From IMG/VR virus record IMGVR_UViG_3300025759_000064, positions 46,920 to 110,919 of that record: 64,000 nt of DNA. One strand, given 5' to 3'. Below, one piece after another: positions 1-47,060 of the stretch. Position numbers and translations under genes: made by a program. The notes below the pieces were generated by a model, which ran no database searches, was not told the DNA's origin, and was given only the letters and a program-made list of their open reading frames with translations. The stretch is from a virus. Every line of letters begins with the position of its first letter. Position 1 is the first letter of the stretch.

Positions 1-2
1 CG

Positions 3-650
3 TCTTGTTGGAATACCTGCTTTTTGTAATCTAATTAGGTCTTCTCTAAAAGGGTCAAATATCTTATGTTCTCCAATTCTACCTTCTCTCCATAATTGAG
101 CGGCCTTGTTATCAAAATATCTATCCGCTTTATTAGCAACTAGAAGAATCATTTTTGGTGCATACTTTTTCCCTTTTCTCCAACTTTTCCAATTTCTATA
201 TCTATAATTTCTTTCTATTATATTATCTACTAAAAATCTAAATCCACCTATTTGGGTTAAAGCATCGTCGCCACCTTTGAAAGCCCTATCATCAAACATA
301 AATATCGCATATTCGCATTGTCTAGCGACCATATCATCTATCCAAAGATTCCAATATCTTTCTTCTCCACCTAAATCAGCAGAGTGAATAACTCTTCTCT
401 CTCCTTCCCAACGCACTCTTTTACGTGTAGGTTTAGGTAAAATATAGCGAGTTATTAATTTGAAATGTTTAGTCCTTTCGTGTTCAGGTATTTCTTCCAT
501 TTCACCGGGCGTAGTCATATATTTGTCTAAAGTAGTTTTACCAACCATAGACGCGCCATATATTCCCACTCTTCTAGATTTCCAATTATTGTAGGCTTGT
601 TTACCGTATAAGGCTACACCCACTAATATACTGCCGCTTGCCGCAACCAT
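3..650 (-). CDS. Arf/Sar/Ras-superfamily small GTPase with hydrophobic N-terminus (3' end runs off the window)
   Basis: Absent from the ORF track because it is truncated. My translation from ATG 650 is MVAASGSILVGVALYGKQAYNNWKSRRVGIYGASMVGKTT...ADLGGEERYWNLW...AIFMFD...ILLVANKAD, which contains G1 (GxxxxGKT), G3 (DxxG) and G4 (NKxD). Confidence 0.85.
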   Translation of the reverse strand, partial: MVAASGSILVGVALYGKQAYNNWKSRRVGIYGASMVGKTTLDKYMTTPGEMEEIPEHERTKHFKLITRYILPKPTRKRVRWEGERRVIHSADLGGEERYWNLWIDDMVARQCEYAIFMFDDRAFKGGDDALTQIGGFRFLVDNIIERNYRYRNWKSWRKGKKYAPKMILLVANKADRYFDNKAAQLWREGRIGEHKIFDPFREDLIRLQKAGIPTR

Positions 651-655
651 ATCAA

Positions 656-943
656 TCAACTAAACTTATTTGTTAACCATGTTCCAAAGTCTGCTACTTT
701 TTGATATACCCATTCAACTGTCATTTCCCATAAGTTCCAATCTGTATTGGCTTCCATTGCAGAAACAGCCATTGCTGCACCGACAGAACATAATATTGTT
801 CTAATCCAACCCAGTCCCCATTCGTAGGTATTATCTACTGTATTTGCTAAATGCATAGCACGCAGTGTTTCTTCAACTGAATCATCACCAACATTGCGAA
901 AAATACGCAATGGAGAAGGAATTAACTGTCCGGGTAGTACCAT
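656..943 (-). CDS. small membrane protein
   Basis: Hydrophobic segment WGLGWIRTILCSVGAAMAVSAM; co-oriented with and directly upstream of the GTPase. Confidence 0.65.
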   Translation of the reverse strand: MVLPGQLIPSPLRIFRNVGDDSVEETLRAMHLANTVDNTYEWGLGWIRTILCSVGAAMAVSAMEANTDWNLWEMTVEWVYQKVADFGTWLTNKFS

Positions 944-954
944 ACTGCTTTACC

Positions 955-1620
955 TCAGGAGGCTTTGTATCTTAAATCCGGCGTACCGTCTTTCTTTAAT
1001 CGCTGATTTGTTGGTTGCCCATCTCTTGGTGGTATAGGTAATGTTCGTGGAGGTAAGTTAGACTGGCTTGTCATTGCATCTACTGCTCTTTGTGTATTCG
1101 ACAAACCTAGATTCATCGGTGCTTCTTTTTGTGCAGAATGAGTAGGTACTCCAAATGGATTAGCGGTGTTATGATAATCACCAGCGACACCATCGGATAT
1201 ATTACTACCATTAAAGAACTGACTATTTTGCATTATTCTACTAGGGTCTTCTTGCATTAAACGTAATTCATGTTCTAATTGTAATTCCATTTGTCTTAAT
1301 TCTAAGTCTGCTCTACGTTGGTCAAAACCCATTTGTTGCTGTCTATACATGTTTTGTCTATTTCTTTGCATTTCAGCAACTTCTACTTTTTCTTTCATAG
1401 ATTGTTCAAAGAACATTTTGAATAAGTAATAGGCTATTGTTTGTACTGCGAGCGCACCCATAGCATACGTCATTCCATTAATAGTGGAATTAGCATTAGC
1501 CCCTGTTGGTAACCATAACCCTGAACTATACACTCCTACTGCTACTCCTACTAACGCAGATTGGGACAAAATTAGCCCTGTCATTTTCATTTCATTTGTA
1601 TCTCCGATGTCTCTACTCAT
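955..1620 (-). CDS. two-TM membrane protein with Q/R-rich coiled coil
   Basis: Two hydrophobic helices (LILSQSALVGVAVGVY; MTYAMGALAVQTIAYYLF), then a coiled coil and C-terminal RLKKDGTPDLRYK. Confidence 0.7.
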   Translation of the reverse strand: MSRDIGDTNEMKMTGLILSQSALVGVAVGVYSSGLWLPTGANANSTINGMTYAMGALAVQTIAYYLFKMFFEQSMKEKVEVAEMQRNRQNMYRQQQMGFDQRRADLELRQMELQLEHELRLMQEDPSRIMQNSQFFNGSNISDGVAGDYHNTANPFGVPTHSAQKEAPMNLGLSNTQRAVDAMTSQSNLPPRTLPIPPRDGQPTNQRLKKDGTPDLRYKAS

Positions 1621-1670
1621 ACTGTGACCTCGCTCTAGCCCACGGTGGGGGTCATCTTAAGCCTTATCTG

Positions 1671-1741
1671 TCCGAATATTCTAATGTCTTGTATATACAT
1701 AAAGAATAATATGTACTATTGTATAGATAGACAATCGGAAT
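1671..1741. repeat. 71-bp imperfect palindromic element, copy A
   Basis: TCCGAATATTC...GTATATAC...TGTATAGATA...ATCGGAAT; aligns without gaps to the reverse complement of 47988-48058. Confidence 0.6.
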
Positions 1742-2217
1742 CATCGGACAGGCCATATACCTTCAGGTGCATATTTTTGCCACATAGATTGAGCCTCAGG
1801 TGATTGGTCATTATCAGGGGTTAATGTTTGGTCATAATTAGATAACACTTCTGCCATAGTATCATAGAGATTTTTAGCATATCCTCTTTGTCGATAAGGT
1901 TGTTCTGTTCTCGCATTCATAACACTGGTAGTGTTTCTATCGCCTAAAGTTCTAGCATTCATTCTATTCCTATCACTAATATTCCCAGCGATATTTAATC
2001 TAGGTCGTGTTCTTTTCAAAGGTTTACCAAAATAAGTTCCACCGTTTTCTCGCCTTCTAACATCTATGTCTGTTTGTAATATTTCATTAGTAACAGGGTC
2101 TTGAAAATCAGCAGCCCACGTATCGTGTTCGCCTGATGGTTCAGATGTTACTCTTCTTAATGAATCGGGAATCATAGGCGCTTTGAGCACAATCCACGCT
2201 TGGTCGAAGGCGGTCAT
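1741..2217 (-). CDS. leader-tagged GNAT-like acetyltransferase
   Basis: N-terminal MTAFDQAWIVLK; acetyl-CoA motif A-like YRQRGYAKNLY; C-terminal QSPEAQSMW. Confidence 0.7.
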   Translation of the reverse strand: MTAFDQAWIVLKAPMIPDSLRRVTSEPSGEHDTWAADFQDPVTNEILQTDIDVRRRENGGTYFGKPLKRTRPRLNIAGNISDRNRMNARTLGDRNTTSVMNARTEQPYRQRGYAKNLYDTMAEVLSNYDQTLTPDNDQSPEAQSMWQKYAPEGIWPVR

Positions 2218-2432
2218 TGATTATCACTCCACCAAGTATCTACTTCAGGGTCATTCATCAAATCTTCATTAAAATAATAGAAATGCTTCTTGTAACAATC
2301 ATCACATAACATTCTTGGAAAATCAACGCCATCATCAAGTGTATGATTCTGACTGTTTAACAAAGCACCACAATGTGAACAAGCGCCCACTTCTAATTTT
2401 AGCAAAGCCCACGCTTGGTCGAAGGGGTTCAT
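2214..2432 (-). CDS. leader-tagged small Zn-finger protein
   Basis: Likely start MNPFDQAWALLK at 2432 (TGATG overlap with the upstream stop); CxxC...CxxC. Confidence 0.65.
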   Translation of the reverse strand: MNPFDQAWALLKLEVGACSHCGALLNSQNHTLDDGVDFPRMLCDDCYKKHFYYFNEDLMNDPEVDTWWSDNQ

Positions 2433-2791
2433 CAGCAGTTCCACCGTTTGAGCGCTGCGCCCTTCGGTGTTAGTTTTCCACCTTTACTGGTCGGTCCTTT
2501 GCTCCCACCCATTCTAGCACAGAATGACTTTCTTCTGTTTGCCGCTTTACTACCGGGTTTTAGTGAACTTGGTTTTTTAGTAACAGGTCTTTTCAAGTTT
2601 GCACCTGTCTCTCGCTTGAACTTTGCACGCCCTTTTGCATTTAGACCACCACTTCTGCTATGCCTGTTTGGATTGTAACCGTGAAATGGTTTTGATTTCT
2701 TTTTTGCTTTTTCAAACACAGAATCTAACAGTGCTACTGATGCTTGTTGCATAGGTGTGCAACAGTCACATGTGTCAAATCCCATAGTCAC
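2432..2791 (-). CDS. basic conserved phage protein (DUF6321-like)
   Basis: GGLNAKGR...NLKRPV...RRKSFCARMGG...ALKRWNC is a recognisable marine-phage family; Cys-rich N-terminus. Confidence 0.6.
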   Translation of the reverse strand: MTMGFDTCDCCTPMQQASVALLDSVFEKAKKKSKPFHGYNPNRHSRSGGLNAKGRAKFKRETGANLKRPVTKKPSSLKPGSKAANRRKSFCARMGGSKGPTSKGGKLTPKGAALKRWNC

Positions 2792-3096
2792 CGTAACACA
2801 CCCACCATCTTAACAATTGTTGGCTTTCCGCCCACACCTTGCTTTTTTGCACGTTTTCTTTTTGTTGCTGCTTGCTTCTGACCTGATGACATAGAACCTG
2901 ATGTTTTTGGCGTTTTGCTTGAAACCTTGATTGATGGTCTGCATTTAGGATAACCTTTACTAGATTTATTTGCTTTACTTCTACCACACGGAGGATGCTT
3001 ACCATCTTTAGTACGCGACACATCTACCCATTTTTCTTTGAACCAGCGATTTAGGTTCTTAACTACAAGAGTATCATGGCAAGTACATCGTGTCAT
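2788..3096 (-). CDS. basic conserved phage protein
   Basis: LNRWFKEKWVD...PCGR...YPKCRP motif seen in marine phages; overlapping start/stop with both neighbours. Confidence 0.65.
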   Translation of the reverse strand: MTRCTCHDTLVVKNLNRWFKEKWVDVSRTKDGKHPPCGRSKANKSSKGYPKCRPSIKVSSKTPKTSGSMSSGQKQAATKRKRAKKQGVGGKPTIVKMVGVLR

Positions 3097-3254
3097 ACTA
3101 CTCCTACCATTTTCTTAATACTCTTTTGTTTATCCATCAATGCGTAACAAGGACATTTAGGAGCGGATGCTGAACATTGATTACCCTCAATCATACAAAC
3201 GCAAGGCGTTTTACTAGTAGCCCCGCAACAACATTTGTCTTTCTTAAGTTTCAT
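3093..3254 (-). CDS. 53-aa Cys-rich, metallothionein-like peptide
   Basis: My translation: MKLKKDKCCCGATSKTPCVCMIEGNQCSASAPKCPCYALMDKQKSIKKMVGVV; ATGA overlaps at both ends. Confidence 0.6.
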   Translation of the reverse strand: MKLKKDKCCCGATSKTPCVCMIEGNQCSASAPKCPCYALMDKQKSIKKMVGVV

Positions 3255-3421
3255 TTTTTCTTTTTCCCCTTAAACTTACCACGACAATATTGAACAGCCC
3301 ACCCGTTTGCATACGCAGATGGGTAAACATCGAACTTTTTCTTTGCGGCTGCTTTTCCAGCAGGGCATAGTTTTTTCCAAACCGCATCCATACCAACACA
3401 ATGACCGCATTCGCAACTCAT
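3251..3421 (-). CDS. 56-aa basic conserved phage protein
   Basis: My translation: MSCECGHCVGMDAVWKKLCPAGKAAAKKKFDVYPSAYANGWAVQYCRGKFKGKKKK; the KFxVYPSAYAN motif is common in phage small proteins; ATGA overlaps. Confidence 0.65.
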   Translation of the reverse strand: MSCECGHCVGMDAVWKKLCPAGKAAAKKKFDVYPSAYANGWAVQYCRGKFKGKKKK

Positions 3422-4983
3422 TTTTTCACCTTAACCCTGCGAAGTGTACCTTTATTTTTGAAATGCCTTGCTCTATTTGAGTGTGCACTCTCTAAAGTTA
3501 ATTTTCCACCTTGCGTGTGGCTGACATCTTTACCACCTTTTCCGTATATGCCCCGCTTCCTACGCTCTGTGTTTAATTGCTCACGATACTTTACACGCTT
3601 AGGTGTCTTTTGATATTGCTTGTCATACTCTAATTTGTGAGCAAATGCTGCTGGCGACTTGCGCTCTTTGAGCAACTGATAGGCTATGTCCATTGGTTCG
3701 CTGGCTAGTTTCCGATTTTTCCACTCAAAACGGGTAGTATATTCAGGATGGTCTTCGGGAAGCAACGACATTGGAGGACGTTCTTTACTTGGCTCAAGCC
3801 GTCTATATTCATTTTCAAAATGTCGTCTGTTCTCCCTTTTTTGTTTTTCATAATACCTATTGAACTCCTTTATTGAATCCCAATAGTCTTGTTCATTATA
3901 ATCTTTTATATTTCCATATCCGTATAATCTTTCAGAGCCTTCATCTCGCTCGTATGGTTGGATATTGCTGAAATAATCATATAACATATTTTCATCCATA
4001 TCTTCGTCTTCCTGAATATTTTTAAGCAACTGGAGGGCTATGTCCATTGGACTACCTTTAGTCAATTCGTAGATTTCATCTTTAGTTTTACCATAAAATA
4101 AATTATGTAACTCATCTGCATCCATATCTTCTATCTTTTTTCGTTTAATCGGCTTACCCCAAGGTAAAGGTTTGTCGCTCCATCTACTAATTCGGCCACT
4201 TGGCCTTCTGTCTGTATTACTAATATTACGACCTAAATTGGGAGTGCCCATCTCTAGTGTTTCGTCTTTATAATGTCGTCGCAATGGTACTTCAACTAAA
4301 CTTTCACGTGGAATATTTTCATCATGCTCAATAAACGCTTCTGCTAAATCTTCTTTTGCTTCGTCACTATCTCTTCTGTGCACTTTTCCGTATTTATCAA
4401 GATTTCCACGTACATAAACTAACTTATCGGGGGCATTATGGGTGTATAAATTATTAATATCTCCCATTGTATTATTTGAAACCCAAGTTCCAGCCTTTGC
4501 ATTTTTTAATCCAGCGAAAAGTTTTCGCGCGCGGGGATGATACTTACCATCTCTATGCGCACCTGCCATATAATACGGTACATTTGATATAGGGTCTTTC
4601 CTCCATCTCGAATTAGGGTCTTCCCAAACAGGGTCATTATCATGGGGTATTTCAGGAATCAGTGGTGGAAGTCTTGGGTCACCTTCTTCATAGTTTATAT
4701 TAGAGCCATCTTGCGGTACAGGTTCTCCCGCAGGTCTATGCGCCCCTTGTACACGAACAGCCCTAACGGGGTCCCATCCTTCCCAACCAGTTGTGTAATC
4801 TAATCTAGGGTCATGCATTGGCAACTTTGTTTGATAATTATTTTCAATTGTGTACTCCGGGTGATTTGGAAACAATTGCGCTCTTCTCGCTTGTTCCATC
4901 ATATCCATATATTCTTTCGATTCTTTAATAGCCTCTTCATCTTCTAACGATTTTAGAAAAGCCCAAGATTTGTTAAACACCAT
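3418..4983 (-). CDS. leader-tagged multi-module protein (ART-like domain, acidic module, C-terminal HNH-like module)
   Basis: Likely start MVFNKSWAFLK at 4983; internal PMDIALQLLK and PMDIAYQLLK separate the modules; GTWVS...EAFIEHDENIP is ART-like; KDVSH...ESAHSNRARH is HNH-like. Confidence 0.65.
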   Translation of the reverse strand: MVFNKSWAFLKSLEDEEAIKESKEYMDMMEQARRAQLFPNHPEYTIENNYQTKLPMHDPRLDYTTGWEGWDPVRAVRVQGAHRPAGEPVPQDGSNINYEEGDPRLPPLIPEIPHDNDPVWEDPNSRWRKDPISNVPYYMAGAHRDGKYHPRARKLFAGLKNAKAGTWVSNNTMGDINNLYTHNAPDKLVYVRGNLDKYGKVHRRDSDEAKEDLAEAFIEHDENIPRESLVEVPLRRHYKDETLEMGTPNLGRNISNTDRRPSGRISRWSDKPLPWGKPIKRKKIEDMDADELHNLFYGKTKDEIYELTKGSPMDIALQLLKNIQEDEDMDENMLYDYFSNIQPYERDEGSERLYGYGNIKDYNEQDYWDSIKEFNRYYEKQKRENRRHFENEYRRLEPSKERPPMSLLPEDHPEYTTRFEWKNRKLASEPMDIAYQLLKERKSPAAFAHKLEYDKQYQKTPKRVKYREQLNTERRKRGIYGKGGKDVSHTQGGKLTLESAHSNRARHFKNKGTLRRVKVKK

Positions 4984-4984
4984 T

Positions 4985-5203
4985 CTAAATCCATCCTGAT
5001 GTCCTCTTTGATTGTTGTGTCTTAGGTTGTGACGTAGGTTGAGGCGGATTGGCTTGCATATTTCTTTTAGCATCTGCGTTTTTAGCCATTATCATGTCTT
5101 GTAGAGACATAAAGCGACCTGAGCCGGGAGGATATTCGTGCATATCAATGGGGTCTGCTTTGAGAAATTGCCAAGCCTCATTGAATGCGGTCAACCCAAT
5201 CAC
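4985..5203 (-). CDS. leader-tagged small protein
   Basis: LTAFNEAWQFLK leader; tightly packed between its neighbours. Confidence 0.6.
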   Translation of the reverse strand: MIGLTAFNEAWQFLKADPIDMHEYPPGSGRFMSLQDMIMAKNADAKRNMQANPPQPTSQPKTQQSKRTSGWI

Positions 5204-6345
5204 CTATTTGCAAAAACATCTTTTGGCATACGAGGTCTTGGTTTGTTAGGGTCTGCAAATCGTGGGTCACCCGGTCTAGGCGCACCACGTGGTTTTCGCA
5301 TTTCAGGCATACCTTCCGCCATTATTGCAGCCCGTTCCGCTTCATTCATTTCCGCTTGGCGTGCATCTTCATCACCAAACTCAGGTTTACCGTATGGCGG
5401 TCCTAAATCTTCCCCATCATATTCAGGAAAACCTTCATCATCGTATCTACTTGGACCGGGCATACTATCTCTAGTGTAATTATTCGCCCCTTTTCTATGT
5501 AAATCTTCGTCTATAAAACGTTGAGGAGACATATCAGGAAGATTTCGTGCTCTGACGTGTTCGGGTAAATTAGATATTCTAAAGTTTTGCTTCAACATTT
5601 CAAATGCTTTTTGCATAGGTTTACCCCTGCCGGGGATTCGATGTAGCATTTTTGAATTGATAAGTTCTTGTAATTTTGCCTCACTTGCTGCTCTTTTACC
5701 AAGTTTAGTGTTTTTTAACGCTTCTTGCAAAAATGGGGCATAATCATCCTTAAAATCCCGCACCTCTTTATTAGTTGGGTGTGTTTGTTGGTATGAGTAA
5801 GATTGTGGTGCTTTGGTTCTTCTTTGGTTATCTTTGTTAGCATAAGCATTCATTTGGTCCATAGGGTCATCTACACTTCCATATGGCATACTATCGGCGT
5901 AGTACTCAGGGTGCATATCTAACGTTGGGGTTTTACCATCACGGTAATCTAATGCACTTTCATTTGCACGAAGATTCAGATTTGGCAAGTCTGCATTTTC
6001 GTCATTATAACTACCTGATGTCAAATGGGGGTTTTCTTTCATGCGCCTCTGCATCATCCCATATATCGCAGGGTGTATAGTACCCGCACCCTCTTGCCTC
6101 TCTCCGACATCAGGGCCTTCTCCTTGGTAAGTGATTTCTGCTAGATTGGCTCTGTCATAAGCAGGTTCAAACATTTGATGCTCAGGTAGCGCTTTCAAGG
6201 TCTGCCACGATTTCTTCATAGGCATAGAGCCGTATTTCTTCATGTTCGGTGTAGCGGCATCGGTGGGCTTAGTTTTCATTTTTGGCCCAATGCTGATAAT
6301 TACAGCAACGCCCTTTTTCTTTTTCTTGTCTTTCATTTTAATCAC
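5200..6345 (-). CDS. low-complexity multi-module protein with two internal leader-like motifs
   Basis: 381-aa ORF containing MPMKKSWQTLK and PMQKAFEMLK; P/D/E-rich. Confidence 0.65.
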   Translation of the reverse strand: MIKMKDKKKKKGVAVIISIGPKMKTKPTDAATPNMKKYGSMPMKKSWQTLKALPEHQMFEPAYDRANLAEITYQGEGPDVGERQEGAGTIHPAIYGMMQRRMKENPHLTSGSYNDENADLPNLNLRANESALDYRDGKTPTLDMHPEYYADSMPYGSVDDPMDQMNAYANKDNQRRTKAPQSYSYQQTHPTNKEVRDFKDDYAPFLQEALKNTKLGKRAASEAKLQELINSKMLHRIPGRGKPMQKAFEMLKQNFRISNLPEHVRARNLPDMSPQRFIDEDLHRKGANNYTRDSMPGPSRYDDEGFPEYDGEDLGPPYGKPEFGDEDARQAEMNEAERAAIMAEGMPEMRKPRGAPRPGDPRFADPNKPRPRMPKDVFANR

Positions 6346-6347
6346 TT

Positions 6348-6695
6348 TTAATTTTGATATTGTGGATTATTTTGCTGGTACGGTGGCCTTTCATGCTCAA
6401 ATGGGTTTCTTTTAGCCTCAAATGGTTTGGGTTGATGAGGTTGGTAAGGGTTGTAAGGTAGGTTGTTATCATTTGGATTACCTTGTCCGTATGGCGCATT
6501 TTGCTTCATTCTCTCCATGTACTCGTCCAAAGTTCGCTGTTTACCTTCTTTTGATGGAGAGGGGGCGTAAGGGTTAGGTTGAGGATTATTTCGGTAAGGT
6601 TGGTTAGATGGATTGGAAGGCATTGCTCGGTGGTATAAATAATTCGGGTTAGGTGCGCTTTTCAAAAACGTCCACGCTGTTTCAAATGCTGTCAT
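6348..6695 (-). CDS. leader-tagged N/P/Q/Y-rich protein with PIP-box-like motif
   Basis: MTAFETAWTFLK leader; KQRTLDEY. Confidence 0.65.
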   Translation of the reverse strand: MTAFETAWTFLKSAPNPNYLYHRAMPSNPSNQPYRNNPQPNPYAPSPSKEGKQRTLDEYMERMKQNAPYGQGNPNDNNLPYNPYQPHQPKPFEAKRNPFEHERPPYQQNNPQYQN

Positions 6696-6964
6696 TCTCC
6701 TTGACCCCCTCTAAATGACTCAAACCATTCGGGATGGTTCTGTCTGTAAAAATCAATTATTTTAGCATCTTCTTCGTGGTCATCTATTTTTTCACGTAAT
6801 TTTGAAGCCTTTTGCTTCTTTTTACGGCTATCAGACCTTGTTTTACCAGTTTGATTCAGTGCCTCTTCCATGTAACTTGGCATATCGTGCTGCATAGCAA
6901 CTTGAGAGGAGGGGGACATTTTTAGCACATTTATTGCTGCATCTATTGGATTCATTTTATTCAC
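6692..6964 (-). CDS. small protein with degenerate leader
   Basis: MNPIDAAINVLK at the N-terminus. Confidence 0.6.
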   Translation of the reverse strand: MNKMNPIDAAINVLKMSPSSQVAMQHDMPSYMEEALNQTGKTRSDSRKKKQKASKLREKIDDHEEDAKIIDFYRQNHPEWFESFRGGQGE

Positions 6965-7136
6965 CTTTTACGCATCGGCGTGGTAACTACGTGCACCGCT
7001 AGTAATGCGATATGTCTAATATGTTACGCTCTATCCTGAGGGCGTGGTGGCTTCCATTCCGCAGGGTCAAGTTGTTGTAAGTTCTTCTTCTTTCCACATT
7101 CATTACCTCAAAAAAAATAAGCAGACTGGTGGGAAT

Positions 7137-7760
7137 ATGGAAGTCACCGCACCTGTTTTGGTTACTAAAGGCGTAGGAGAAACAGCGCTAAACTTGGGCG
7201 CTCTTGCACTTGCACCATTTACTGGTGGTATGTCGGCAGTTGCCTTAGGAGCAGCAAGAGGCGCACAGGCATTGAGAGCGGTAAAAGCAGCAAAAGGTGC
7301 AAAAACTGCCGTAGGAACTACTCAAGCCGCTAAAACTACTGCTGGTAAAGTTGCAGTTAAAGACCCAATGGCTATGGCAAACGCAAGACATGCAGAGCAA
7401 ATAGCAGAGGCTGGTGAAAGCGGAGGTAGATTAGGTCAATTGCGAAGTAGAGCAGTAACACCAACGGCGGCAGAAGAATTAGAGGCTGCAACTTCAAATC
7501 AAGCAAGAATGAAAGATATAGCAAGCACTACTGATGCAGCAGCAGAAGCGGAAAAAAATCTTGCCGAATTACATGAGCAACAAAAAACTGCAACAGATAC
7601 AGCAGGGGCTGCTGCTGTTGTGGGAGTACAAGGCACAAACGCTGCCGCACAACAAAAACAGGCACAACAAAAAGCCGAAATGGAAAGAATAGAAGGATTA
7701 GCGGAAGATGCTAGGTCAAAAGCCAGCACCGGAACTGGTGGGAAGGTAGCGGTGGCATGA
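7137..7760 (+). CDS. Ala-rich helical protein with hydrophobic glycine-zipper-like N-terminus
   Basis: ATG at 7137; LGALALAPFTGGMSAVALGAA followed by an Ala/Gln-rich coiled coil. Confidence 0.65.
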   Translation: MEVTAPVLVTKGVGETALNLGALALAPFTGGMSAVALGAARGAQALRAVKAAKGAKTAVGTTQAAKTTAGKVAVKDPMAMANARHAEQIAEAGESGGRLGQLRSRAVTPTAAEELEAATSNQARMKDIASTTDAAAEAEKNLAELHEQQKTATDTAGAAAVVGVQGTNAAAQQKQAQQKAEMERIEGLAEDARSKASTGTGGKVAVA

Positions 7761-7853
7761 TTGCCATGGCTCTAAAAGGCTACATTAAACTGCAATTAGC
7801 CCAAATGATACAGCATTTGATTGTCGGCTTAGGACTTGTAGTTGTAGTTACTG

Positions 7854-8702
7854 TTATACTTTTATCTTAGTATTTACAAACTTGACTAGCGGTTCTAAGT
7901 CTTTAAGCGTAACACCACAATCAAGATTCTCTCTATCAGCCCAGTGTACTAACTGTTCTGTGGCTAAATTGCCCCCTGAGCCGGGTACAAACGGGCAACC
8001 GCCCATTCCTCCAATGCTAGAATCGAACTGTGTGATGCCGCAATCGAAGCCAGCAGACAGATTATCGTACATTCTGCCCTCTCTTACACCGTGATGTAGG
8101 TGCAATGCGATATTTGCATCTATCTTTCTGTCAGTTAAACGCATTACTTTGCGTATCATCGATGGGTTAGCATTACCTATGGTGTCAGACAAAACTATTG
8201 TATCGCCTAAGGTATTTGCCCATTCCATGGTTTTTAGCATGTCTTTTGGCGGTATTTCGCCCATAATCGGGCATCCAAAAGATGTAGAAAGGTAAACTCT
8301 GACGTTTTTGGTCGGTATTCTGTCTAATGCGCCACTGTATTCAGCAAAAATTGTGTTTAGGTTTTTACCTAAGTTATTGACATTGAAGTAGTTTGACGGT
8401 GAGAAAAAAATATTATATTTTTCTACACCAACAGACTTTGCCCTTTCAACACCCACACGGTTTGGCACTAACATACCCAAGTTGTGCGTAGAGGCTAAAT
8501 CTTGCACTTTGAGGAATACTACTTCGCTATCAGCCATATTTGGAACTCTGTCAGGATTGACCATTGAGCCAATTTCAATATTTTTGATACCCGTATTTGC
8601 AATTTTACGTATCAAAGTCACCTTATCGTGCGTAGATGTGATTGTATCTGCGCTCTGCAACCCATCGCGTGGTCCTACTTCGTAGATTGAAAAGTCGCTC
8701 AT
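7854..8702 (-). CDS. hmgL: hydroxymethylglutaryl-CoA lyase (DRE-TIM metallolyase)
   Basis: IYEVGPRDGLQ, SFGCP, SDTIG, LHLHH (metal-binding HxH) and GGMGGCPF...GNLATE are all present; likely start at 8702. Confidence 0.9.
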   Translation of the reverse strand: MSDFSIYEVGPRDGLQSADTITSTHDKVTLIRKIANTGIKNIEIGSMVNPDRVPNMADSEVVFLKVQDLASTHNLGMLVPNRVGVERAKSVGVEKYNIFFSPSNYFNVNNLGKNLNTIFAEYSGALDRIPTKNVRVYLSTSFGCPIMGEIPPKDMLKTMEWANTLGDTIVLSDTIGNANPSMIRKVMRLTDRKIDANIALHLHHGVREGRMYDNLSAGFDCGITQFDSSIGGMGGCPFVPGSGGNLATEQLVHWADRENLDCGVTLKDLEPLVKFVNTKIKV

Positions 8703-9361
8703 TATTCTGTCTCCCAATCCCACATATCGGGTCTTTCAGTTTCACCAACACCCCCACCGTAAGCCAAATCTTTAATGTCTCTCGGCACATTGCCCCAAGT
8801 AGATTCATCATGCCAATTCATTGGCTGCCCTACGTTTTTACCCTGTCTCATCATAACTAATCGGTGCGGGTCAATCGCCTCATGGATAAGCCCTTCAGGA
8901 AATCCTTCAGGACTTTGTTTTGCGTTCCTCCACTGCGCATCGAGATTTTTCGCGCCCTCAGGTGTCATACGAATCCCAACCATTGAATGTCCCATTCCTT
9001 TTCCACTAGGCGTAGCACCAGCGTATGCGGGTGTAACATTACGAAAATCGGGTTTAGTCACCCAAAATCCTTTACCCCCACCACGTGTAGTATCAAACTT
9101 TTTGTCATTTTTACCAGCCATTACATCTTCCCATTGCGAATTATCTTCTCCATAACCACGGTTTGCGTTTTGCGGCAAAGGCTGCAAACCTCGATTATCA
9201 ATATCTTGCATATATTCGCTCGGTACAACACGCATCATCGACATCGGCCCAGCCCGACTAGGAAAATCTGCATGGTATTGACCCAAGGTAGTTTGGTCAG
9301 GGTGCAATTCAGGATACAAAGGTGACTTTAGAACAGCCCATGCTTGGTCAAAGGGGTTCAT
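8702..9361 (-). CDS. leader-tagged putative ADP-ribosyltransferase-fold protein
   Basis: MNPFDQAWAVLK leader; R...IDNRGLQP, GFWVT, AYAG, VGIR and EGLIHEAIDP follow the Tpt1/ART-like pattern. Confidence 0.5.
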   Translation of the reverse strand: MNPFDQAWAVLKSPLYPELHPDQTTLGQYHADFPSRAGPMSMMRVVPSEYMQDIDNRGLQPLPQNANRGYGEDNSQWEDVMAGKNDKKFDTTRGGGKGFWVTKPDFRNVTPAYAGATPSGKGMGHSMVGIRMTPEGAKNLDAQWRNAKQSPEGFPEGLIHEAIDPHRLVMMRQGKNVGQPMNWHDESTWGNVPRDIKDLAYGGGVGETERPDMWDWETE

Positions 9362-9729
9362 TGTTGACCCTCCCGATTCGCCCAAAAACCCTCAGCATCC
9401 TCGCTCTGCATGTGATTAGTGTTCTGCACAGTAAGTCCAGTAATTTTCTCAGCGTGGTTGTACATGTCCGTGGCTATACCCCCTCTCCGAAAACTCGGAT
9501 GCGTGTAACTAGCCAAAGGAATCAAGTTACCGTCAGCCACTGAAAACTTTGCATAACCATATTTTATGGGCTTTTGGTCGTATTTATCCAAACCCTGTAT
9601 GGCCGCAACCTGTAAATTACCATGTTTATCGTATTCATGCTGCAACGAGAAATCTTCGGGGTCTCCGTAGTAAGGGAAATCCGGTTTAGGCATTTTGAGT
9701 ACAGCCCACGCTCGGTCGAAGGCAGTCAT
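9358..9729 (-). CDS. leader-tagged GNAT-like acetyltransferase
   Basis: MTAFDRAWAVLK; THPSFRRGGIATDMY; QSEDAEGFW. Confidence 0.75.
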   Translation of the reverse strand: MTAFDRAWAVLKMPKPDFPYYGDPEDFSLQHEYDKHGNLQVAAIQGLDKYDQKPIKYGYAKFSVADGNLIPLASYTHPSFRRGGIATDMYNHAEKITGLTVQNTNHMQSEDAEGFWANREGQQ

Positions 9730-10259
9730 TCATGCACCCCATCATACGGCCAACGTAGTCTTATCCCTCTATAATCATCTTGAAACTTAGTGTGAGCAGA
9801 ACGCCTCTCATCTCCCTCATACGGCAATTCCATGTGTTTTGCCCAAAATGGGGCTGAGGATGCGCTTAACTGACTCGGAAATGTCGTTAGCCTAGCATTT
9901 TTCTTCTTCGCCATCTCATTCGCCAAATTATAAACACCCGTCATCAAACCTCTTCTTCTGTAACCCTCTCTAGTTTTTGCATGAGAAGTTTTCCATTCAG
10001 GGCCATAATGCTCGCTAATATGATTAACAGCAAGCGGTTTTCCATCATTATCCATAATTCTTGTATTTAGCCCATACATATCATATTCCGACACCATTGG
10101 ATAGATTTTGTTTGTTTGAGGGTCTTGAAATTGTGCTTCCATCCCACCGTCTTGTACGTCAGCCTCCTTAATGGGGTCCCACCCTTCTATTTCTTTAATT
10201 GAGCCGGGGATTATCGGCATCTTGAGTATAGCCCACGCAATGTCGAATGCGTTTACCAT
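9726..10259 (-). CDS. leader-tagged GNAT-like acetyltransferase
   Basis: MVNAFDIAWAILK; TREGYRRRGLMTGVY; SASSAPFW. Confidence 0.75.
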   Translation of the reverse strand: MVNAFDIAWAILKMPIIPGSIKEIEGWDPIKEADVQDGGMEAQFQDPQTNKIYPMVSEYDMYGLNTRIMDNDGKPLAVNHISEHYGPEWKTSHAKTREGYRRRGLMTGVYNLANEMAKKKNARLTTFPSQLSASSAPFWAKHMELPYEGDERRSAHTKFQDDYRGIRLRWPYDGVHE

Positions 10260-10303
10260 GCGCCTCACACAGCGTTACTCTATATCGAACTACCGCTAAA
10301 TTA

Positions 10304-33644: not shown

Positions 33645-34238
33645 ATGAGTAATATAGCAGTCTGCCAAAAATGCGGTAAAAACTTTAGAAAGAAGAACAA
33701 TAGAACAGTGCGCAGTTATTGCGATGAGTGTAGTACAAATTATACTAAAACGCTAAACAAAAGAAACGTCTACAATAGAAGTAAATCTTCCATTGAAAAA
33801 GAGACCAAAGAAGAGTACAGGATACGTTTACTAGAAGAAGAAATAAAAGAATTAAAATCTGTTTTTGAAAGTATTAGCGATAGCACAAAAAGACAGATTG
33901 CGAAAGAAGTAGGGGTAGCCATTCAAGAAACAATGAAAATAGCCTCAAAAAACCTAGAAGAAGATTTCAATAATCATAAACTTCTTGTCGAGAGCGTAGT
34001 ATCAGATGAGTTCAAAAAACAAAACACAAAGTTTCAGAATCAATTAGCCATATTGAATACGCGAATGAAAAAGTTAGATGAAAGTTTTACAGATTTAGAT
34101 ACAAAGATGGCGGAACATTTACATTATTACACCACTAAACTAAGTTTACATAAGAACCGTAAAGGCGGTAGAGTACAAAAGAATCGAACTATTACTGGTA
34201 AAAAGAGGGATGAAGTTGAAAAGGGGGATGAGATATGA
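33645..34238 (+). CDS. Zn-finger plus coiled-coil protein
   Basis: CQKCG...YCDEC, then a long coiled coil. Confidence 0.7.
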   Translation: MSNIAVCQKCGKNFRKKNNRTVRSYCDECSTNYTKTLNKRNVYNRSKSSIEKETKEEYRIRLLEEEIKELKSVFESISDSTKRQIAKEVGVAIQETMKIASKNLEEDFNNHKLLVESVVSDEFKKQNTKFQNQLAILNTRMKKLDESFTDLDTKMAEHLHYYTTKLSLHKNRKGGRVQKNRTITGKKRDEVEKGDEI

Positions 34239-34903
34239 CAATACATGACGCATGGGCGTTACTCAAGGAGGAAGTCAGATTGAGAGGCTCTACTGGGGCT
34301 GCATTGCGCATTTTACCTAGTGGTAAAAAAGTGGTAGTAAAAAGAGGCGGTCACGCTGGAGGTAACCCTCAGGCTCACATTAACAACGAGTATGACATGA
34401 ATCGTTATCTGAATGAATTAGGTGTTGGTGTTCCTAATGCTCGAATGGTAGAAGAAAGAAGTAGACCTACTATGCTTACTGATTATGAAGAAGGGGCTAG
34501 ACCTGTGAATTATGGAGACAAGCAAAAATTAAGACAAGACTTCGTTCCACAGGCGCTCATAGCCAATTGGGATGTTCTAGGTATGGATATGGATAATGTT
34601 CTGATGAGGCCCGATGGCAACCTTACCTACGTAGACGTAGGAGGGGCTGGACCGTATAGAGCGCAAGGTGCGCCTAAAGGAAATGCTTGGGGTTCTAGGG
34701 TATCTGAATTACAATCAATGCAATATAAGCCACCACATACAGAAGAAGTATATGGGGGAATAACCCCTCAAGAACTAGGTCAGTCTTACGATAAATATGG
34801 CGGTAGCGATGCGATGGAGGCTGCTCTATCCTCGCTTAGAAACAGTCAGACAAGAAACGTACTACAACAAAGAATAGGCGATATAGCAAGACAAGTTGCA
34901 TAA
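34235..34903 (+). CDS. leader-tagged PI3/4-kinase/HipA-like kinase-fold protein
   Basis: MTIHDAWALLK leader; GSTGA, VVK, NE, GVGVP, ANWDVLG...DN and VDVGG...YRAQG resemble the kinase-like domain of phage head-associated polyvalent proteins. Confidence 0.65.
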   Translation: MTIHDAWALLKEEVRLRGSTGAALRILPSGKKVVVKRGGHAGGNPQAHINNEYDMNRYLNELGVGVPNARMVEERSRPTMLTDYEEGARPVNYGDKQKLRQDFVPQALIANWDVLGMDMDNVLMRPDGNLTYVDVGGAGPYRAQGAPKGNAWGSRVSELQSMQYKPPHTEEVYGGITPQELGQSYDKYGGSDAMEAALSSLRNSQTRNVLQQRIGDIARQVA

Positions 34904-45962: not shown

Positions 45963-47060
45963 GTGCCATTCATACCACTTGACTTTCCGAGGGAAGTCTT
46001 GGAATTAAGCGCTCATGGTGGTCATGGCGGGCGTTACCTTGTAAGGAACTGGGAAGAACTAGAAAGATACTGGAAAGGTAAAAATGGAAGCGGAAACGCT
46101 TACTTTACTGCTTACGGGTACAGACGAACTCAAGCGCCTAGACACCATAGAGCGGAATACAACACAGCCATAGTTAGACACTTTGTCATGGACTTCGACT
46201 GTAAAGACTTCAAACAGAAAGGTAAGAGCGTAGAGTTTTCTTTCATGCATGAGCAGGTAAAGAGACTACATCAGCATTTATTAGATAACGACTATCATCA
46301 TTTTATTTATTTCTCAGGCGGAGGATTCCATATTTGGATTCCTTTTGAAGAGGCATTCCTCCCTACTGATGGATTAGAAGTTACTAGATTGAAAAGTGCA
46401 GGTAAGATGCTTATGATGAATTGGCACGATGCGTTAGACCTTTCTTGTAATGACCCGACAGTGGCATTTGATTTAGCGGGTATGATAAGGATACCCAACT
46501 CATACAATATGAAACGTGGATGTTGGTCTACACCTCTTACCTCAGAAGAAGTATTGACTCTTGAACATGAAGATTTGTTAGATTTAGCACAAGAGCCTAG
46601 AGGTGGGTATATACTTCTGGGAGAAAAACCGATTAAACTCGCACTACCTGAGAAAAAGACGGGCGTATTCGCTGTGAATAAAAAGAAAGTGGGTGATTTA
46701 CCCACTATCTCATTAGGTAAGATACAGGTACTACCATGTCTAGCACAAGCGGCTTTAGGTGAGGGTAATCCTATCCATAGGGCTAGGTATCATCTAGCCT
46801 CATATCTAGCCCATAGACTAAGGTGGTTCTTTCCAATAGATAGAGTAGAGGAAAAAGAATTAGATAGCCATGTGGAACAGATAATTGAGATTTGTTCTGA
46901 ACAAGGTTGGGCTGATTACAACGAAGATACTACTAGAATGCAAACAGAGAGTATAGTTTACAAAGGATACCCCCACGCCAAATGTAGCACTTTGATGGAA
47001 GAGGGCTTCTGCACAGGTAAGTGTAGATTCTACGATGGAACAGGAGAAGGATTAACATGA
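45963..47060 (+). CDS. archaeo-eukaryotic primase, catalytic PriS domain fused to PriL C-terminal Fe-S domain
   Basis: MDFD, FSGGGFH, D...IRIPNS; C-terminal LPCL...H..R..LASYL...C..L...GFC...C. Confidence 0.9.
   Translation: MPFIPLDFPREVLELSAHGGHGGRYLVRNWEELERYWKGKNGSGNAYFTAYGYRRTQAPRHHRAEYNTAIVRHFVMDFDCKDFKQKGKSVEFSFMHEQVKRLHQHLLDNDYHHFIYFSGGGFHIWIPFEEAFLPTDGLEVTRLKSAGKMLMMNWHDALDLSCNDPTVAFDLAGMIRIPNSYNMKRGCWSTPLTSEEVLTLEHEDLLDLAQEPRGGYILLGEKPIKLALPEKKTGVFAVNKKKVGDLPTISLGKIQVLPCLAQAALGEGNPIHRARYHLASYLAHRLRWFFPIDRVEEKELDSHVEQIIEICSEQGWADYNEDTTRMQTESIVYKGYPHAKCSTLMEEGFCTGKCRFYDGTGEGLT

Follow-up and report, generated by a model that had tools for sequence, protein, structure and literature searches.

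In phage lambda the lysis genes S-R-Rz head the late operon, ahead of Nu1-A, and in eukaryotes the protein SRbeta carries an N-terminal membrane anchor. In Haloferax, ArvA drives the formation of vesicles (PMC10927574). The machinery by which archaeal tailed viruses leave the cell has not been characterised, and their holins have been elusive (PMC10791045). Here we analyze a gene cassette in which a small GTPase is encoded beside membrane proteins, in a 111-kb tailed virus (magrovirus) of abundant ocean archaea, Marine Group II. The stretch of DNA examined, hereafter the window, is 64,000 nucleotides (nt) long and corresponds to bases 46920-110919 of the 110,919-bp IMG/VR record IMGVR_UViG_3300025759_000064, which is estimated to be 98% complete. 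Judging from sequence, the cassette is a plausible candidate for the means by which such viruses affect or rupture the membrane of their host.

The listing of open reading frames (ORFs) places three tightly spaced ORFs on the minus strand, headed by a putative promoter, where an earlier note on this DNA had reported them. The first, tm221 (955..1620, minus strand), encodes 221 amino acids (aa), in which two N-terminal transmembrane (TM) helices are followed by a long, charged helix and a tail rich in Q, N and P. The second, tm95 (656..943, minus strand), encodes 95 aa, comprising a soluble segment that is conserved at the N-terminus (RIF..DDSVEETLRAMH), a single TM helix and a C-terminus rich in Trp. 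The third is the GTPase gene (1..659, minus strand; listed as open ORF 3-659). The end of tm221 is 11 nt from tm95, and the stop codon of tm95 overlaps the TTG of the GTPase by 4 nt. The earlier note had described a real gene with its motifs but had not marked that the ORF leaves the window at the left edge: the window holds the N-terminal 219 of 241 codons, and the C-terminal 22 codons, including G5 (ATR.GWNVE), lie to the left at genome positions 46853-46919 (minus strand). The full gene (L001:1434-2159, minus strand) has 241 aa when counted from the TTG at 659. The likely true start is the ATG at 650; all relatives begin at this ATG, three codons inside the TTG, which gives a protein of 238 aa.

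In order to determine whether the GTPase ORF is a genuine gene we examined its relatives and its rate of change. A search of 5.8 billion proteins returned 476 clusters of relatives at 66-93% identity, all of them on magrovirus contigs, many of which are 60-125 kb long; a few relatives carry the automatic label 'GTPase SAR1 family protein'. An exhaustive profile search of 1.8 billion representatives found just 84 at E<=0.001, and the family is therefore large but narrow. Compared with relatives at 91-93% amino-acid identity the gene has a dN/dS of 0.04 at a dS of about 1, while dS is saturated against more distant relatives. Because of the 476 clusters and this low dN/dS, the GTPase is a real, strongly constrained gene, far beyond chance, and we rejected its reading as a chance ORF or a pseudogene. 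We also rejected a recent capture from a host, since no cellular relative scored better than E ~1e-4 among the 1.8 billion representatives. A scan of cellular genome contigs found only two cases, short contigs (L082 and L083) in a Maricaulis and a Promethearchaeati (Asgard) metagenome-assembled genome (MAG), which carry the complete cassette with 66-68% GTPase identity; these are most likely viral contigs mis-binned into cellular MAGs and not cellular homologues. A tblastn search of the GTPase against 50,697 GenBank phage records gave no match. Neither the cassette nor a GTPase is mentioned in the magrovirus papers that were searched by text, although the protein may be annotated in their supplementary tables.

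Motifs and fold, contained in a single 238-aa G domain, make the protein a member of the extended Ras-like small GTPase superfamily (TRAFAC class). The three motifs to which the earlier note had pointed are exact translations of the minus strand. G1, the P-loop GASMVGKTT, is encoded at 531..557, and its residues G35, G40 and K41 are invariant in all subfamilies. G3 (DLGGEERY, 354-377) belongs to the switch II segment DLGGEERYWNLW (342..377, minus strand), which has Gly in the third position of the motif and Trp at D+11, the signature of Arf, Sar and G-alpha, and Glu at the catalytic position; D95 and G98 are invariant, and G97 and W106 are present in at least 90% of family members. The Gly in the third position of G3 has been named Arf-specific (PMC11914678). 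G4 (ANKAD, of the NKxD type) is encoded at 123..137 and includes the invariant N176 and K177. Together with R113, D123, R125, P168 and H198, these residues (G35, G40, K41, D95, G98, N176, K177) are unchanged in all subfamilies, and the G1, G3, G4 and G5 motifs (GASMVGKTT, DLGG, NKAD, ATR/SAK) are invariant or nearly so across them. A probable G2 (R62-T63 in 'ERTxH', 468..476, minus strand), assigned by alignment to the Arf PT.G motif, sits within a long and highly conserved switch I insert (residues ~45-81), where M48, T49, T50, P51, G52, E53, R62, T63 and H65 are invariant in the close family (alignment A1). A second insert, basic and aromatic, precedes G4. The residue that follows DxGG varies: it is Q in 56, E in 23, D in two and H in two loci of the first subfamily, Q in 42 and E in 38 of the second (P0146-type), and H in all four of the third (P0129-type) that were counted.

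The placement of this GTPase among known families was approached through sequence searches, fold comparison and phylogeny. Its sole Pfam match is to Roc, at 17.6 bits and under the cut-off. Pfam Arf (PF00025) has no match in the virus genome even at E<=10, a threshold at which all 14 of 14 control genomes were positive. Searches of PDB sequences by phmmer and with a close-family profile returned nothing, and only profiles with divergent members reach Arf. A strict family profile (A5), which leaves out borderline sequences and for which a RecA P-loop repeat match was set aside as an artefact, matched the Asgard Arf 8oun (7e-6), Arl8A, Arl8B, Arl10 and Rab33B at E<0.01; no EF-Tu/Era/Der/Obg-type family was among the matches at this threshold. 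The structures 8OUN and 8OUM are both of Asgard Arf proteins. Some family members weakly match the Pfam MMR_HSR1 and EF-Tu models. A borderline relative, P0204, labelled SR-beta in its source, matches Pfam SRPRB and is the sole one to pass Pfam Arf.

An AF2 model of the GTPase (pLDDT 65, with low confidence in residues 1-26 and 38-75) was compared with known structures. The best 50 Foldseek matches in the PDB are all Ras-superfamily small GTPases, and VIA-align against 48,161 chains gave SRbeta (Z 9.2), Arl8 (9.1), Gs-alpha (9.0), Loki Rag (8.8) and Arf6 (8.7), which are tied within 1 Z. MglA is a mid-rank match by the same method (Z 7.4), and no roadblock/LC7 partner (MglB, PF03259) is encoded in the virus genome. 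The nearest viral fold matches are giant-virus Rab/Ras proteins, and the best 50 BFVD matches include no small GTPase of a prokaryotic virus.

The labelled references for the profile comparison all came from a single Asgard genome (8 Arf-like, 14 Ras-like, 5 Rag-like and 7 MMR_HSR1-type proteins, and 1 ArvA-type protein beside OapB). With hhalign, the viral profile scored alike against Ras-like (E 2.6e-12, score 84) and Arf-like (2.6e-11, score 78) proteins, followed by Rag (2.4e-9), MMR_HSR1 (3.9e-8) and the ArvA-type (6.1e-8) reference, the latter built from the Asgard GTPase adjoining OapB and 20 relatives. The Arf-like alignment spans the whole G domain, over 171 columns that include the N-terminal helix. 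The ArvA-type alignment (probability 94.7%) covers the N-terminal 75 columns only, comprising helix, P-loop and switch I ('EIPHETR' vs 'EIPE.ERT'), and stops at G3. The ArvA-type gene itself encodes a 204-aa GTPase that is followed directly by OapB (Pfam 76.9 bits), the two forming an ArvA-ArvB pair (Asgard genome G001, L227:1456-2425); the ~1,700 relatives of this GTPase are labelled 'Era-like GTP-binding protein'. In a tree inferred with IQ-TREE (LG+C20), the viral GTPases are monophyletic (99/94) and fall outside the Asgard Arf, Rag and Ras groups, with the borderline sequences P0203-P0205 adjoining them. The viral clade lies on the MMR_HSR1/ArvA side of a 97/94 branch, through long branches. 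Approximately unbiased (AU) tests rejected neither a tree that joins the viral clade to Arf+Rag (p-AU 0.11) nor one that joins it to the ArvA-type protein (p-AU 0.20).

The phylogeny that the earlier note had proposed therefore bears out a single viral clade but leaves both of these groupings standing. Its label 'Arf/Sar-like' is likewise borne out in part: the DxGG..W switch II, the helix at the N-terminus and the closest matches in sequence and in fold all point towards the Arf/SRbeta branch, but Pfam Arf does not match, Ras-like proteins score as well, and the maximum-likelihood (ML) tree does not nest the family within Arf. A grouping with soluble translational-type GTPases, which the same note had named as a refutation, was not recovered; the protein has a single G domain and does not group with multi-domain translation-factor GTPases. 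Because the Arf-type features are offset by the absence of a Pfam Arf match, an equal Ras-like profile score and an open tree placement, we file the GTPase as a new, isolated and very divergent family of the extended Ras/Arf superfamily, with an Arf-type switch II and an N-terminal third that looks like that of ArvA. Membership in the Arf family proper is not demonstrable.

The GTPase begins with the hydrophobic helix MVAASGSILVGVALYGKQA (594..650, minus strand), after which come aromatic and basic residues (NNWKSRR). The Kyte-Doolittle 19-aa mean for residues 2-19 is 1.62, on a par with the TM segments of tm221 (1.57) and tm95 (1.48), and the hydrophobic N-terminal helix reported earlier is thus confirmed. 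The best 18-aa helix window (H 0.50, uH 0.31, z +2) is within the HeliQuest range for Arf helices in PMC11914678. G9, L12, G14 and G19 are invariant in the close family, and a hydrophobic N-terminal segment followed by aromatic and basic residues is present in every subfamily member examined, with a sequence that differs among subfamilies. The helix of the GTPase (SILVGVAL, window 609-632) and the first TM helix of tm221 (SALVGVAV, 1537-1560), both on the minus strand, have in common an S-x-L-V-G-V-A small-xxx-small motif, which could be a helix-packing interface or could reflect mere TM-like composition.

In order to determine whether the cassette is conserved, we examined IMG/VR loci. In 80 of 80 loci the order is tm221, tm95, the GTPase, a 59-aa AbrB/MazE-type protein (Pfam 24.5 bits) and d343, an orphan of 322-343 aa; tm221 is present in 79 of the 80, the lone locus without it being cut at a contig end. 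A Q-rich 214-aa protein and an 86-aa 2-TM protein follow d343 in all 82 loci of this type. The AbrB/MazE-type protein is a cassette member in this subfamily only. The GTPase is the best-conserved member, and tm95, found in 80 of 80 loci, has recognisable homologues or positional analogues in three other subfamilies. In these three the core order (a 2-TM protein with a basic helix, a small TM protein, the GTPase and a d343-like protein) is kept at 31-39% GTPase identity. P0129-type loci keep the core order, P0130-type loci have in addition the Q-rich and small 2-TM proteins with one extra gene inserted, and loci of both types contain matches to the tm221 hidden Markov model (HMM). In the 140 IMG/VR loci of the P0146-type the TM proteins are positional analogues, the d343 HMM match is weak and the small-protein motif aligns. 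IMG/VR scans with the P0130, P0158, P0159 and P0205 queries found no locus. Therefore the operon-like run of a GTPase behind two membrane proteins, as first described, holds well beyond this genome: the three genes are adjacent in every IMG/VR locus from the first query, and the core order recurs in all four placed subfamilies.

Three cassette proteins have predicted TM helices. In tm221 residues ~70-125 form a charged, helix-prone stretch, which suggests a coiled coil. Most members of d343 have a C...GC...CPxH pattern. In P0130-type homologues (L170:7794-8540, L175:7792-8532 and L179:7802-8533) SYSPDL replaces the otherwise invariant TYCPEH, and the putative zinc site of d343 is therefore not universal. 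The AF2 model of d343 is poor (pLDDT 59.5, pTM 0.40) and gave no match in Foldseek or in the ESM Atlas. No usable match came from Pfam, PHROGs or NCBIfam for tm221, tm95, d343 or the Q-rich and 86-aa proteins. A complex prediction for the GTPase (with GTP and Mg) and tm95 scored 0.00, which gives no verdict and speaks neither for nor against binding. The 86-aa protein, just outside the window, has two TM helices and a basic C-terminus and is holin-like by architecture alone. The earlier observation that no holin was seen accordingly needs qualification: no TM protein of the cassette matches a holin family and no endolysin was found, but a protein of holin-like architecture belongs to the same cassette.

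The cassette seems to be served by a promoter of its own. The genes overlap or abut internally, and 120 nt precede tm221; the putative promoter-like and ribosome-binding elements lie at 1625..1661 (minus strand). They comprise a TATA-like CTTAAGATGA at 1652-1661 and a Shine-Dalgarno-like GAGGTCA at 1625-1631, both on the minus strand, ahead of the tm221 ATG at 1618-1620. A YTTAW box stands 35-45 nt ahead of the tm221 start in 21 of 21 relatives inspected, and most of these also have a GAGGTCA-like box ~4-9 nt ahead of it; these boxes are probably an archaeal TATA box and a Shine-Dalgarno site. Four metatranscriptome studies yielded contigs that match the cassette with 95-100% identity, and single contigs from RNA libraries bridge the tm221/tm95, tm95/GTPase and d343/AbrB junctions. 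They leave parts of the stretch uncovered, and their depth neither ranks the genes nor gives timing.

The cassette heads a minus-strand array that continues with a helix-turn-helix (HTH) protein, several orphans, the terminase large subunit (Terminase_6N/6C), an HNH protein, Phage_portal, a 1820-aa protein, a putative capsid gene and tail genes. The putative capsid gene owes its name to its place in the array and to a resemblance between its N-terminus and that of the protein preceding the P0146-type cassette. The latter cassette comes directly after small head genes and a putative major capsid protein, assigned from N-terminal likeness alone. Given the neighbouring terminase, portal and putative capsid genes, we therefore regard the cassette as a late module linked to morphogenesis.

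Several other features of the genome came to light in the same analysis. At least eight otherwise unrelated proteins begin with a ~12-residue leader, M-x-(A/P)-F-D-x-A-W-x-x-L-K (e.g. MTAFDQAWIVLK and MNPFDQAWALLK). Their genes lie upstream of the cassette at window positions 1741-10268 (minus strand) and 34235-34903 (plus strand), and the leader may be a common targeting or capsid-loading tag. HNH proteins assist terminases in some phages, and left of the window, between the genes for the terminase large subunit and the portal, a 380-aa protein matches an HNH endonuclease (genome 35964-37106, L169:1968-3107; PHROG 5046, E 5e-7). The structural array ends, also left of the window, in a single ORF of 5,068 aa (genome 1-15205, minus strand), unusually large for a gene of a tailed virus.

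Conservation of a GTPase together with membrane proteins in a late module suggests a function at the host membrane. The reading that we prefer, tentatively and at somewhat less than an even chance, is drawn solely from protein anatomy and gene position: the cassette would bring about a late, virus-directed change in the host membrane, most likely virion release, timed or driven by a membrane-held GTPase switch. In this scheme the N-terminal helix would hold the GTPase at the cytoplasmic face of the host membrane, beside the co-encoded membrane proteins. The GTPase would switch according to its nucleotide state, using the long conserved insert in switch I as its effector surface, and would time or drive a late change in the membrane. 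This change would most likely be a breach or remodelling that lets virions out of a host bounded by a membrane and an S-layer only. Release seems the most likely purpose because the egress of archaeal tailed viruses has no known machinery, because only a membrane and an S-layer have to be breached, and because the lambda lysis genes likewise head a late operon. A more specific version, doubtful in our view though worth stating, is that the cassette is a new release machine in which the membrane-anchored GTPase gates or assembles holin-like proteins, such that a nucleotide switch, and not holin concentration alone, would time the lysis of a wall-less archaeal cell.

Several points weigh against a role in release. 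The cassette TM proteins match no holin family, nor any other family in Pfam, PHROGs or NCBIfam, and no envelope-degrading enzyme was found next to the cassette. The catalytic Gln is replaced by Glu in the GTPase of this virus. With ~16 residues, the uncharged N-terminal stretch is on the short side for a true TM helix, and residues 2-19 are only weakly amphipathic (uH 0.12); the mode of membrane binding is therefore ambiguous, and the helix may either be a short anchor, like that of SRbeta, or lie in-plane, like that of Arf/Sar. The RNA-library contigs may hold carried-over DNA. Finally, the site of the cassette beside packaging and capsid genes suits a role in assembly equally well.

We consider it unlikely, although it fares best among the alternatives, that the cassette is a membrane-bound platform for assembly or packaging, on which prohead, portal or terminase assembly would be anchored or nucleated with the GTPase as a checkpoint. 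There is a precedent in phage T4, whose portal protein gp20 starts head assembly at the membrane, helped by gp40. The cassette always lies within the morphogenetic block, ahead of the HTH, terminase and portal genes here and, in the P0146-type, behind small head genes and the putative major capsid protein; it is accompanied by two soluble orphans, d343 and the Q-rich protein. However, the assembly of tailed viruses generally needs neither a GTPase nor membrane proteins, and no cassette protein resembles a known scaffold, chaperone or portal partner.

It is decidedly improbable, in our judgment, that the cassette takes over the host membrane for an end other than release, such as vesicles, a compartment for replication or assembly, or a block to superinfection, in the manner of ArvA or Arf/Sar1. 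The N-terminal third of the GTPase aligns to the ArvA-type profile (E 6e-8 over 75 columns), and the tree that joins the two was not rejected (p-AU 0.20). However, G3 of the viral protein is an Arf-type DxGG as opposed to the DMPG of ArvA-type proteins, and the ArvA partners are missing: neither OapB (PF09846) nor OapC (PF09845) was found in the 98%-complete virus genome, whereas both were detected in a Haloferax control. A late structural block would also be an unusual place for genes of takeover or exclusion.

We attach very little probability to the idea of an SRbeta-like receptor, in which a membrane-anchored Arf-type GTPase would tether a soluble partner and assist in the targeting or insertion of membrane proteins of the virus. 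In the fold comparison SRbeta comes out on top, and it too has an N-terminal membrane anchor, and the borderline relative P0204 matches Pfam SRPRB, but the Z score of 9.2 is a tie, within 1 Z, with Arl8, G-alpha, Rag and Arf. No roadblock/longin-type partner was found in the virus, although SRX itself was not searched. To our knowledge archaea use FtsY without SRbeta, which also counts against this idea.

It is hardly credible that the protein is a soluble regulatory GTPase, with its hydrophobic N-terminus buried or oligomerising and its TM neighbours merely co-transcribed: the viral clade does lie on the Era/Obg-type (MMR_HSR1) side of the ML tree (97/94) and some members weakly match the MMR_HSR1 and EF-Tu Pfam models, but that grouping joins long branches and its Arf+Rag alternative was not rejected (p-AU 0.11), the single 238-aa G domain has no RNA-binding or translation-factor domains, every subfamily member examined retains the hydrophobic N-terminus with aromatic and basic residues behind it, and the linkage to TM proteins is kept at 31-39% GTPase identity.

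Magroviruses rank among the most abundant viruses of the surface ocean, where their hosts play a major part. A conserved, virus-specific cassette of a GTPase and membrane proteins provides a concrete, expressible candidate for the exit of archaeal tailed viruses, and one that is testable without culture of the host. If the proposed release machine is correct, archaeal tailed viruses would have their first identified egress system, and viruses of prokaryotes as a whole their first lysis system under the control of a GTPase. The GTPase also bears on the history of small GTPases, in that an ArvA-like N-terminus and switch I are joined to an Arf-type switch II.

A comparison with known systems places the cassette as follows. 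With the Arf family (Arf, Arl8, Sar1 and the Asgard ArfR 8OUN/8OUM) the viral GTPase has in common G1, NKxD and an SA-type G5, the DxGG G3 with Trp at D+11 and a helix just before strand 1, and its best sequence matches among solved structures are 8oun and Arl8/Arl10. It differs in the ~15-20-residue conserved insert in switch I and the basic/aromatic insert before G4, both without an Arf counterpart, in a catalytic position that varies between Q, E and H, and in a more uniformly hydrophobic N-terminal helix; it also lacks a Pfam Arf match, its family is not nested in the Asgard Arf clade, and its gene belongs to a membrane-protein cassette. SRbeta is similar in having an Arf-like G domain behind an N-terminal anchor, the viral N-terminus being anchor-like (fold match at Z 9.2, rmsd 3.6, 151 residues aligned). 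It differs in that no SRalpha/SRX-like partner turned up in the virus, SRX itself not having been searched, and in that SRPRB matches are confined to a borderline relative.

The ArvA-ArvB-ArvC system (OapABC; PMC10927574) likewise includes, within a conserved operon, a small GTPase that is of uncertain family and starts with a helix, and its N-terminus, P-loop and switch I are similar to those of the viral protein. The partners in the virus are, in contrast, integral membrane proteins and different orphans, and G3 is DxGG rather than DMPG. The ArvA system is tied to membrane deformation (PMC10927574), as the viral cassette may be.

Like the holin lysis cassettes of phages such as lambda, the magrovirus cassette presents small membrane proteins at the start of a late array just ahead of terminase, among them an 86-aa protein with a class-II-holin-like architecture; unlike them, it is without endolysin, spanin or a holin family match, and we know of no holin that works with a GTPase. 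Giant viruses (Nucleocytoviricota) also encode small GTPases, of the Rab, Ras and Ran type, and these are the nearest viral fold matches. Those proteins closely copy families found in the eukaryotic hosts of these viruses, whereas the magrovirus GTPase constitutes an isolated family in an archaeal tailed virus.

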